A DNA stretch of 64,000 nt, from the NCBI RefSeq assembly GCF_003334765.1, contig NZ_QOWT01000001.1, one strand, 5' to 3'. Source of the DNA: Escherichia coli (lineage in GTDB: Bacteria; Pseudomonadota; Gammaproteobacteria; Enterobacterales; Enterobacteriaceae). Below the pieces are notes generated by a model. It was not told the origin of the DNA, made no database searches, and saw only the letters and a program-made list of their open reading frames with translations. Within the stretch, counting starts at the first letter, position 1; each line of letters opens with the position of its first letter. Shown here piece after piece: positions 20,713 to 28,038 of the stretch. The position numbers and the translations under genes were made by a program.

Positions 20713-20761
20713 TAACAGGCGGGAAGCGATTAAAAAAGAGGCGGGTCGATGACAAAGGTTA

Positions 20762-20872
20762 CACCGTCTGACGTGCTACGCCTGTCAGGCCTATTCGACT
20801 CCTGCAATGTATTGAATTTGCATAGTTTTATAGGTCGAATAAGGCGTTCACGCCGCATCCGGCGTGAACAAA
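20762..20872. repeat. Composite REP/BIME-type repeat (two REP-like palindromes flanking a conserved spacer)
   Basis: Contains gcctgtcaggcctat and taggtcgaataaggcgttcacgccgcatccggcgtgaaca; the spacer cctgcaatgtattgaatttgcatagtttta recurs nearly identically at 27949-27978. Confidence 0.7.
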
Positions 20873-22276: not shown

Positions 22277-22306
22277 TCAATTCGTCTGAAAGCTTGAGTA
22301 ACAACG

Positions 22307-22335
22307 GAAACCGGCCATTGCGCCGGTTTTTTTTG
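22307..22335 (+). terminator. Rho-independent terminator after osmE
   Basis: Hairpin ccggccattgcgccgg followed by T8. Confidence 0.75.
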
Positions 22336-22373
22336 GCCTGAGTTCTTAATTATCTTCGCGAATTATTTGCCCG

Positions 22374-22395
22374 AAATGTGAAGAGGGTCATAACC
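22374..22395. promoter_or_regulatory. CRP (cAMP receptor protein) site in the chb promoter region
   Basis: aaTGTGAagagggTCATAac matches TGTGA-N6-TCACA with one mismatch. Confidence 0.6.
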
Positions 22396-22574
22396 ACAGG
22401 TCAAGGAGAAACAATTTATAAGGTCAAAGAAATACTATTGCTCAGGTCTATACCGTATACTCCTTTCAGCCACAAAAAAAGTCATGTTGGTTTCGCAAGT
22501 TACCCAGAGCATGGAAGCAGGTTAAGGCTTGCGGAGTGTCTGGCTGACAGATAATCGTCGATGAGGGCAGTTTT

Positions 22575-22895
22575 ATGGAAAAGAAACACATTTATCTGTT
22601 TTGTTCTGCGGGCATGTCTACCTCTTTACTGGTATCAAAAATGCGCGCACAGGCAGAAAAATATGAAGTTCCGGTCATTATTGAAGCATTTCCGGAAACA
22701 CTGGCTGGTGAAAAAGGTCAGAATGCCGATGTCGTGTTATTAGGGCCGCAGATTGCTTATATGTTGCCCGAAATCCAGCGTTTGTTACCCAACAAACCGG
22801 TTGAAGTAATTGACTCGCTGCTTTATGGCAAAGTCGATGGTTTAGGCGTGCTTAAGGCTGCGGTTGCAGCGATTAAAAAAGCCGCAGCAAATTAA
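22575..22895 (+). CDS. chbB: PTS chitobiose-specific EIIB component
   Basis: 106 aa; [24 protein letters not shown] with active-site Cys. Confidence 0.95.
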
Positions 22896-22979
22896 TTTAT
22901 TTTAAATTTTCCCGTCAAAGAGTTATTTCATAAATCAATACCGCAATATTTAAATTGCGGTTTTTAAGGGTATTTTTCT
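22896..22979 (+). promoter_or_regulatory. chbB-chbC intergenic region (known ChiX sRNA pairing/decoy region)
   Basis: 84-nt AT-rich spacer inside the operon; function assigned from the literature, the pairing site itself was not verified by eye. Confidence 0.45.
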
Positions 22980-24338
22980 ATGAGTAATGTTATTGCATCG
23001 CTTGAAAAGGTACTCCTCCCTTTTGCAGTTAAAATAGGAAAGCAGCCACACGTTAATGCAATCAAAAATGGCTTTATTCGCTTAATGCCGTTAACCCTTG
23101 CGGGGGCCATGTTTGTATTAATTAACAACGTTTTTCTAAGCTTTGGGGAGGGGTCGTTTTTTTATTCCTTAGGTATTCGCCTCGACGCCTCAACCATTGA
23201 AACACTTAATGGTCTGAAAGGTATTGGCGGCAACGTATATAACGGAACATTAGGAATAATGTCTTTAATGGCACCGTTCTTTATTGGCATGGCGCTGGCA
23301 GAAGAGCGTAAAGTCGATGCGCTGGCGGCTGGGTTGTTATCCGTTGCAGCATTTATGACCGTCACCCCATATAGTGTCGGTGAGGCCTATGCGGTTGGTG
23401 CAAACTGGTTAGGTGGGGCGAATATCATCTCCGGGATTATTATTGGCCTGGTGGTGGCAGAAATGTTTACCTTTATTGTCCGCCGCAATTGGGTCATTAA
23501 ACTGCCCGACAGCGTACCTGCTTCAGTATCGCGTTCCTTCTCGGCATTAATTCCCGGCTTTATTATTCTTTCCGTGATGGGGATTATTGCCTGGGCGTTG
23601 AATACCTGGGGCACCAACTTCCATCAGATCATTATGGATACCATCTCAACCCCACTGGCATCGTTGGGTAGCGTGGTGGGCTGGGCCTATGTGATCTTTG
23701 TTCCACTGCTCTGGTTCTTCGGTATTCATGGCGCGCTGGCGCTGACCGCACTGGACAACGGCATTATGACGCCGTGGGCACTGGAAAATATCGCGACCTA
23801 TCAGCAATATGGTTCCGTCGAAGCGGCGCTGGCAGCCGGTAAGACCTTCCATATCTGGGCCAAGCCGATGCTGGACTCCTTTATTTTCCTTGGGGGCAGT
23901 GGTGCGACTTTAGGCCTGATCCTGGCTATCTTTATCGCCTCTCGCCGTGCTGATTATCGTCAGGTGGCAAAACTGGCGCTGCCGTCCGGCATCTTCCAGA
24001 TTAACGAACCGATTCTGTTTGGTCTGCCAATTATCATGAACCCGGTGATGTTTATCCCGTTTGTACTGGTACAACCGATTCTGGCGGCAATCACCCTCGC
24101 AGCGTACTACATGGGCATTATTCCTCCGGTGACCAATATTGCACCGTGGACCATGCCAACCGGTCTGGGAGCCTTCTTTAACACCAACGGTAGCGTCGCC
24201 GCATTGCTGGTCGCACTCTTCAACCTTGGCATCGCAACGTTAATTTATCTGCCCTTTGTTGTGGTGGCTAACAAAGCACAAAATGCGATTGATAAAGAAG
24301 AGAGCGAAGAAGATATCGCTAACGCCCTGAAATTTTAA
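22980..24338 (+). CDS. chbC: PTS chitobiose-specific EIIC permease
   Basis: 452-aa polytopic membrane protein. Confidence 0.95.
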
Positions 24339-24388
24339 TCGATGCCGGTACGGGTAATCGTGCCGGTAAGAAAAGAGAGGAACGATGT

Positions 24389-24739
24389 ATGATGGATCTC
24401 GATAACATTCCCGATACGCAAACGGAAGCTGAAGAGCTGGAAGAAGTGGTGATGGGGCTGATCATCAACTCCGGACAAGCGCGCAGCCTGGCGTATGCGG
24501 CACTGAAACAGGCGAAGCAGGGCGATTTTGCCGCAGCAAAAGCCATGATGGATCAGTCACGGATGGCATTGAATGAAGCGCATCTGGTACAGACGAAACT
24601 GATTGAAGGCGATGCGGGCGAAGGTAAGATGAAAGTGAGTCTGGTGCTGGTCCACGCTCAGGATCATTTAATGACGTCCATGCTTGCGCGTGAACTGATT
24701 ACTGAATTAATTGAGCTTCATGAAAAACTGAAGGCATAA
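24389..24739 (+). CDS. chbA: PTS chitobiose-specific EIIA component
   Basis: 116 aa; lactose/cellobiose EIIA family. Confidence 0.93.
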
Positions 24740-24746
24740 GGAGTCG

Positions 24747-25589
24747 ATGATGCAGCCAGTGATTAACGCGCCGGAAATTGCCACTGCCCGAGAACAGCAG
24801 TTGTTTAATGGCAAAAACTTCCATGTGTTTATCTATAACAAAACTGAGAGTATCAGCGGACTGCATCAGCACGACTATTATGAATTTACTCTGGTATTAA
24901 CCGGGCGTTATTTCCAGGAGATTAACGGTAAGCGCGTGTTACTGGAACGGGGCGATTTTGTTTTTATTCCGTTAGGTTCGCACCATCAAAGTTTTTATGA
25001 GTTTGGTGCCACGCGCATATTGAACGTTGGGATCAGTAAACGCTTTTTTGAGCAGCATTACCTGCCATTGTTGCCTTATTGCTTTGTCGCTTCGCAGGTA
25101 TACCGGACCAATAACGCTTTTCTCACCTATGTGGAAACAGTGATTTCTTCATTGAATTTCCGCGAAACAGGGCTGGAAGAGTTTGTTGAGATGGTTACTT
25201 TTTATGTCATTAACCGTTTACGTCATTACCGCGAAGAACAGGTGATTGATGATGTACCGCAGTGGCTGAAAAGTACGGTAGAAAAGATGCATGATAAAGA
25301 GCAGTTTAGTGAATCGGCGCTGGAGAATATGGTGGCGTTGTCAGCCAAATCACAGGAATATTTGACGCGAGCGACTCAACGATATTATGGCAAAACGCCA
25401 ATGCAGATTATTAATGAAATCCGTATTAATTTTGCCAAAAAACAACTGGAAATGACCAACTATTCAGTGACGGATATTGCGTTTGAGGCCGGTTATAGTA
25501 GCCCGAGTTTGTTTATTAAAACGTTTAAGAAATTAACGTCCTTTACGCCTAAGAGCTATCGTAAGAAATTGACTGAATTTAATCAGTAA
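24747..25589 (+). CDS. chbR: AraC-family dual regulator of the chb operon
   Basis: 280 aa with C-terminal AraC-type HTH. Confidence 0.93.
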
Positions 25590-25693
25590 GTCGTTATACC
25601 TGACAATTCACATATCTGTCCTGTTGCTGGATTATTTATGTCCGGGGGGGCAGATATGCCAGATATCAGTATTCTGTACTGAAGGGAGAAATT

Positions 25694-27814: not shown

Positions 27815-28015
27815 ATGTTTGCCAGATGCGGCGTGAACCTTGCATCCGGCGATTAATTCCTACAAAGGCGGCGTAACTGCGCCGCTTGAGACTGCTGACA
27901 AACGCAAAACTGCCTGATGCGCTTCGCTTATCAGGCCTACGTGTTTCCTGCAATATATTGAATTTGCACAGTTTTGTAGGCCGGATAAGGCGTTCACGCC
28001 GCATCCGGCATAAAC
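27815..28015. repeat. Cluster of REP/BIME-type palindromic repeats between chbG and katE
   Basis: Three REP-like units (gccagatgcggcgtgaaccttgcatccggc; tgcctgatgcgcttcgcttatcaggcctac; gtaggccggataaggcgttcacgccgcatccggca) plus the conserved spacer shared with 20795-20830. Confidence 0.75.
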
Positions 28016-28038
28016 AAAGCGCACTATGTAAATCATTT

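Follow-up and report, generated by a model that had tools for sequence, protein, structure and literature searches.

In both Escherichia coli and Salmonella, the chbBC intercistronic spacer is said to act as a decoy for the small RNA ChiX, an observation attributed to Figueroa-Bossi et al. (2009) and Overgaard et al. (2009). Mutational tests of the decoy have reportedly been published for both K-12 and Salmonella. It was the first bacterial case of an mRNA serving as a decoy for a regulatory sRNA, and it links synthesis of the chitoporin with induction of the genes for chitobiose uptake and catabolism. ChiX represses chiP, and chitobiose induces the chb operon via ChbR; the chb mRNA then base-pairs with ChiX, which leads to titration and rapid degradation of the sRNA (PMC4098024). 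The chbBC intergenic mRNA sponges ChiX and speeds its decay, and ChiX is also sponged by the more recently described ChiZ, a separate, chiP-derived RNA of ~90 nt with a Rho-dependent end (PMC7815308). A genomic-library screen for chiP derepression yielded positive clones that all (25 of 25) carried the chbBC intergenic region (bioRxiv 10.1101/2021.05.11.443692), and the sponging interaction between ChiX and chbBC was also recovered by RIL-seq (PMC5145812). The chbBC decoy has been named the first characterised bacterial sponge (PMC8383071).

Other mRNA-derived sRNA sponges include SroC (from gltIJKL, directed against GcvB), 3'ETS-leuZ (RyhB/RybB), AgvB, RbsZ and FtsO. Like chbBC, sponges of the SroC type rely on a transcribed spacer or mRNA fragment that pairs with an Hfq-dependent sRNA and makes that sRNA less active or less stable. 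They differ from it in being excised or independently terminated small RNAs, whereas the chbBC decoy is, according to the literature, an intergenic region within an induced polycistronic mRNA. No evidence for a discrete small RNA from chbBC was found in our terminator scan or in the Term-seq supplements of PMC7815308, for which the operon was uninduced.

Here, we examined the chb locus in a 64-kb stretch of E. coli DNA (the window). Its open reading frames include, in this order, cho, nadE, osmE, chbB, chbC, chbA, chbR, chbF, chbG and katE, and the six chb genes follow one another on the plus strand, concordant with annotation. A first-pass annotation, made from the letters alone, had described an AT-rich spacer of 84 nt between chbB and chbC. 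The chbB stop codon and the chbC ATG delimit exactly this length (22896-22979), and its G+C content is 25%, whereas the window as a whole has 50% and the chb operon 47%. The accompanying description of the operon as otherwise compact stands in part: this spacer is the only AT-rich one, but the chbR-chbF spacer is longer. The remaining chb spacers measure 50, 7, 104 and 12 nt and have G+C contents of 42-71%.

Positions 22277-24338 show no mismatch to E. coli K-12 MG1655 over 2,062 nt, so that K-12 results can be transferred directly to the sequence studied here. Of 5,426 complete E. coli genomes, 5,405 contain the spacer, 5,382 of them with at least 99% identity. The chiX gene lies outside the window; since 5,423 of the 5,426 complete genomes carry it, as does MG1655, we infer its presence in this genome as well.

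Compared with the chbBC decoy of E. coli and Salmonella, the spacer lies at the same locus, has the K-12-identical sequence and addresses the same partner through the same pairing region of ChiX; we found no difference, and the present element is that decoy. The spacer is thus almost certainly the published chbBC intercistronic trap-mRNA, or sponge, for ChiX. The first-pass annotation had claimed such a decoy role, which the published literature indeed assigns to this spacer: observation and interpretation are both right, and the element is already known. Our analysis makes modest additions: it shows that ChiX and its decoy co-vary in Proteus, delimits the taxonomic range of the site, and describes a conserved hairpin whose position is fixed. 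The statements that the operon is induced, that ChiX is titrated and decays, and that chiP repression is relieved are taken from the literature; spacer anatomy, complementarity and its uniqueness in the window, identity to K-12, conservation across genera and the Proteus co-variation were computed here. These comparative refinements could inform mutagenesis or synthetic-sponge design and leave the overall picture unchanged.

Table 1. Features of the chbB-chbC spacer and the flanking cistrons (window coordinates).
Feature	Coordinates	Strand	Remarks
chbB (PTS chitobiose IIB)	22575..22895	+	Upstream cistron; stop codon 22893-22895; ORF list and annotation in E. coli genomes
U-rich tract UUUAUUUUAAAUUUU	22896..22910	+	Single-stranded; directly 5' of the ChiX site; candidate Hfq-binding tract
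ChiX-complementary decoy site CCCGUCAAAGAGUUAUUUCAU	22911..22931	+	Helix 1, 2x2 loop and helix 2
Helix 1 CCCGUCAAAGAG	22911-22922	+	Partner ChiX 47-58
2x2 internal loop	22923-22924	+	Between the two ChiX-pairing helices
Helix 2 AUUUCAU	22925-22931	+	Partner ChiX 38-44
Linker, 8 nt	22932-22939	+	Between ChiX site and hairpin
Hairpin, 8-bp stem ACCGCAAU/AUUGCGGU, 6-nt loop	22940..22961	+	-10.5 kcal/mol; conserved
UUUU run	22962..22965	+	3' of the hairpin; below the canonical tail length of intrinsic terminators
chbC Shine-Dalgarno (SD) AAGGG	22966-22970	+	AAGGG and its spacing nearly invariant in the alignment
SD-to-ATG stretch, 9 nt	22971-22979	+	chbC ATG at 22980
chbC (PTS chitobiose IIC)	22980..24338	+	Downstream cistron; ATG at 22980; ORF list and annotation

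To describe the pairing, we used as reference the ncRNA chiX annotated in MG1655 (NC_000913.3, 507204-507287), which scores 82 bits against the Rfam model sroB (RF00368). Of the 21 positions of the decoy site, 19 agree with the reverse complement of ChiX nt 38-58 (CCCGUCAAAGAGGAAUUUCAU). Helix 1 of the resulting duplex has 12 uninterrupted Watson-Crick pairs and is joined through a 2x2 loop to the 7 pairs of helix 2; the local energy is -28.5 kcal/mol. When both strands of the window were scanned against ChiX in 40-nt tiles, the site formed the strongest duplex among all 25,584 tiles (mean -10.3, sd 2.9; z ~ -6.3). A pattern search tolerating up to 3 mismatches returned the site as its sole match in the window and no match in 100 shuffles. 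The local 21-nt duplex and the tile scan replaced an initial folding of the whole-length spacer with full-length ChiX (-36.1 kcal/mol, z = -3.9), which contained long interior loops and was rejected as unphysical. The spacer-ChiX pairing that had been proposed from established knowledge is therefore borne out by 12 + 7 base pairs that rank first among the tiles and are unique in the window, and the RNA-RNA interaction check suggested along with it, once run, returned significant complementarity to ChiX.

The site is mostly unpaired in both the predicted minimum free energy (MFE) and centroid folds, and opening 22911-22931 is predicted to cost 2.2 kcal/mol in a 381-nt context; the site is hence predicted to be accessible in the mRNA. 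Target mRNAs of class II sRNAs bind Hfq via single-stranded U-rich sequences (PMC6239178). In line with such targets, the U-rich tract at the 5' end of the spacer may provide an Hfq contact, and every Enterobacterales spacer in our alignment carries a U/A-rich tract 5' of the site. No curated Rfam family reached its gathering score within 22300-23200. The one suggestive hit of a permissive Rfam scan was to sroB, on the opposite strand of the spacer (22.2 bits; gathering score 44), a sub-threshold match consistent with the antisense complementarity of the spacer to the ChiX seed.

We also compared the site with that in the repressed target of ChiX. The chiP (ybfM) leader and the chb spacer share the core GUCAAAGAG, and in the chiP leader a long U-rich run likewise precedes the ChiX site. 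ChiX pairs less strongly with chiP (-21.8 kcal/mol; 11-bp core); relative to that duplex, the chb site has 3 extra G-C pairs and a second helix of 7 bp. In chiP, pairing blocks translation because the site overlaps with the SD (AAGAGGA, 8 nt from the AUG), whereas the chb site lies 49 nt from the AUG of chbC. The chb site thus mimics chiP with a stronger duplex, at a position where a ribosome block is unnecessary. The chb duplex also takes in the two bases with which the ChiX terminator stem begins, G57 and G58, and their pairing might contribute to destabilisation of the sRNA.

Combined with the literature, these features suggest the following course of events. Constitutively made ChiX would, together with Hfq, repress the chitoporin mRNA chiP until chitosugars induce chbBCARFG and the polycistronic transcript builds up. 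The induced transcript would then expose the single-stranded, U-flanked segment 22911-22931 to the ChiX seed (nt 38-58). Pairing between ChiX and the chb spacer would take place on Hfq and form a duplex longer than that of ChiX with chiP. ChiX would thereby be titrated and decayed and chiP derepressed, and the porin would be made alongside the uptake and catabolic enzymes.

To follow the site across genera, we collected 80 chbB loci by scanning one genome per species; Serratia and Yersinia were not part of this set and are also absent among the 120 ChbB homologues listed, and spacers of Providencia, Pantoea and Vibrio were added separately. Of the 80 species-level loci, 55 preserve the 12-nt core CCCGUCAAAGAG unchanged, amid flanking spacer sequence that drifts. 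Core-bearing genera include Escherichia, Citrobacter, Salmonella, Enterobacter, Lelliottia, Leclercia, Raoultella, Trabulsiella, Yokenella and Pluralibacter. Buttiauxella and Cedecea have a shortened match (UCCGUCAAAGAA, ~10 bp, -16.6 kcal/mol), and Pantoea alhagi (L146) carries a degenerate ChiX site together with the hairpin. We did not find the ChiX site in the spacer of Kosakonia oryzendophytica (L065), which retains the hairpin, nor in the spacers of only 10-14 nt in Aeromonas (L072-L077) and Vibrio mimicus (L148); the 113-nt spacer of Providencia (L144) yielded neither the site nor the hairpin. As the site is missing or shortened in some relatives, the trap is not universal among chb operons.

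The spacers of Raoultella and its relatives (L049, L053, L055 and L056) are longer, at 167-169 nt (~3322-3490). In spacers of this type, ~85 extra nt separate the chbB stop from the conserved module of ChiX site, hairpin and SD.

ChiX could be recovered near ybaK/ybaP in four more genera, namely Salmonella, Enterobacter, Buttiauxella and Proteus. The seeds of the Salmonella and Enterobacter sRNAs equal that of E. coli. Buttiauxella ChiX has kept the seed and lost the UGAAAU block, and the Buttiauxella spacer is without a matching second helix. In Enterobacter, the last base of the site has changed from U to C, leaving a helix 2 of 6 bp; a compensation of this change (ATTTCAT to ATTTCAC) in ChiX was considered and rejected, as the sRNA still reads AUGAAAU.

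Proteus differs from E. coli on both sides of the duplex. Its ChiX (UGAAAAAUUCCUCUUUGACUGG) contains GACUGG and UGAAAAAUUC, scores 63.6 bits against Rfam sroB, and is identical in 4 metagenome contigs and 8 genome assemblies; the YbaK encoded near this type of ChiX is the exact Proteus protein. The Proteus spacers follow the pattern CCAGUCAAAGAG-N-GAAUUUUUCA and carry CCAGUC, so that a C:G pair of the E. coli duplex is replaced by A:U, and the second helix is remodelled in sRNA and spacer alike. With Proteus ChiX, the spacers of Proteus vulgaris (L067) and Proteus mirabilis (L143) reached -36.4 and -30.9 kcal/mol, respectively, ChiX and spacer being drawn from different species of the genus in all pairs except that of P. 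mirabilis. In the same comparison, the E. coli spacer reached -28.1 kcal/mol with its own ChiX. The mixed combinations gave -21.4 kcal/mol for both Proteus spacers with E. coli ChiX and -18.0 kcal/mol for the E. coli spacer with Proteus ChiX. Independently of the published work, this co-variation supports the interaction between ChiX and the spacer. In Proteus, sRNA and decoy seem to evolve together, which suggests that the decoy duplex itself is under selection. More broadly, the 55 intact cores among 80 loci and the two-sided changes in Proteus and Buttiauxella are the pattern expected of a site maintained by selection together with ChiX.

Several further observations concern the sRNA gene itself. 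In Proteus, chiX adjoins copA, and a gene for a YadA-anchor protein lies between chiX and ybaP-ybaK. The U56 variant of ChiX (GACUGG) is widespread, occurring in metagenome contigs (L088-L130) and in Proteus genomes (L135-L142), and the YbaK proteins encoded beside GACUGG-type ChiX include exact matches to those of Serratia, Yersinia, Rahnella, Hafnia, Ewingella, Rouxiella and Proteus. For the listed E. coli RefSeq genomes (H11-H15), the chiX match carries no annotation other than ybaP; in MG1655, the ncRNA chiX is annotated.

Downstream of the decoy site, the spacer contains a second conserved element, the hairpin at 22940-22961. Across 72 spacers, 93.6% of alignment cells were paired, 5 of the 8 base pairs were changed on both sides, and 58 cells were compensatory; none of 500 shuffles equalled this score, and control stems slid along the alignment were paired in only 18-56%. 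RNAalifold, run on a MAFFT alignment, recovered only 3 of the hairpin pairs because of indels in the hairpin loop, and the pairs of the E. coli hairpin were then counted explicitly. The distance from the hairpin end to the chbC ATG is fixed at 17-19 nt in all 76 spacers examined. A role as intrinsic terminator, defined by a G+C-rich hairpin followed by at least 5 U within ~8 nt, was rejected as the conserved function, given that the 8-nt tail contains 1-4 U in 76 of 76 spacers. Consistently, our plus-strand terminator scan did not call the hairpin, whose tail in E. coli (UUUUAAGG) has 4 U.

Kosakonia, with the hairpin but without the ChiX site, indicates a role of the hairpin that is independent of ChiX. 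Judging from its pattern of conservation, the hairpin probably serves chbC expression or transcript stability and not the capture of ChiX. It might determine the level of chbC translation, for instance as an insulator of the SD, or it could define a stable decay intermediate of chbB and spacer that is the real sponge. A 2026 preprint on synthetic sponges makes no mention of the natural hairpin. That the spacer holds a second functional element in this hairpin is put forward tentatively and with some doubt. In the predicted MFE and centroid folds, CCC at 22911-22913 pairs with GGG of the SD at 22968-22970 and encloses the hairpin; this interaction comprises 3 pairs only, and other reasons account for the conservation of both triplets. 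If the pairing is true, binding of ChiX would free the chbC SD.

Three explanations compete with, or qualify, a decoy embedded in the polycistronic mRNA. One holds that the site is mainly cis-regulatory, with ChiX repressing chbC and the distal operon when inducer is lacking and the decoy effect being secondary. Figueroa-Bossi et al. (2009) reportedly found that ChiX also dampens chb expression in uninduced cells, and the predicted CCC/GGG pairing points to a link between the site and chbC translation. However, the site ends 49 nt 5' of the chbC AUG, and a stable, conserved hairpin lies between site and SD; distance and hairpin together place the site outside the zone in which an sRNA directly occludes the ribosome. 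The chiP-derepression library screen, moreover, yielded only the chbBC intergenic region, which speaks for strong decoy activity in trans (bioRxiv 10.1101/2021.05.11.443692). A primarily cis-acting site is therefore possible but not favoured, and the two roles are mutually compatible in any case. We consider it unlikely that the active sponge is instead a short chbB-spacer RNA whose 3' end is set at the hairpin and UUUU by partial termination or exonuclease stalling, an arrangement that would equip it, like SroC or ChiZ, with a 3' module that binds Hfq in the manner of an sRNA. The covarying hairpin followed by U residues would suit such an RNA, and other sponges are processed or terminated mRNA fragments (PMC7815308; bioRxiv 10.1101/2021.04.25.441314). 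Against it stand the short U tails in all 76 spacers and the missing plus-strand terminator call, the Kosakonia hairpin kept without a ChiX site, and the Term-seq supplements of PMC7815308, which list no chb 3' ends under conditions in which the operon was uninduced.

The remaining explanation, that the complementarity is a functionless chance feature of an AT-rich spacer, has a negligible probability. Short AT-rich sequences do pair readily with the A/U-rich parts of ChiX, and in the whole-length folding 5 of 2,000 shuffled spacers reached comparable energies. The helix 1 segment, however, is a G+C-containing 12-mer that is unique in 64 kb, and it stays intact in 55 of 80 loci amid drifting flanks. 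Conservation of this kind and the co-variation with ChiX in Proteus refute chance complementarity, and experimental literature supports a function (PMC7815308; PMC4098024; PMC5145812; bioRxiv 10.1101/2021.05.11.443692). The embedded decoy remains the preferred reading of the spacer.

Some additional features of the chb region emerged alongside this analysis. Insertion sequences interrupt the operon in individual E. coli strains, and the chb loci of strains 1506 (L131) and 22AR0118 (L132) are disrupted by IS1 in a region equivalent to ~22916-25000 of the window. In some strains, IS1 sits within chbC, ~237 nt into the gene, with chbB and the decoy intact; in 22AR0118, IS1 is accompanied by a deletion that reaches from inside the ChiX site (~22916) to chbR, so that the decoy is gone. 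The longest spacer of the operon, between chbR and chbF (25590-25693; 104 nt, 42% G+C), contains a long predicted stem-loop at ~25611-25658 (-32.2 kcal/mol, z = -2.4), for which we know of no described function. Finally, a 123-nt repeat with 81% identity between its two copies (20750-20872 and 27896-28018) and REP-like palindromes of the GCCGGATGCGGCGTGAACGCC type occupies the cho-nadE and chbG-katE intergenic regions, flanking the nadE-osmE-chb block.
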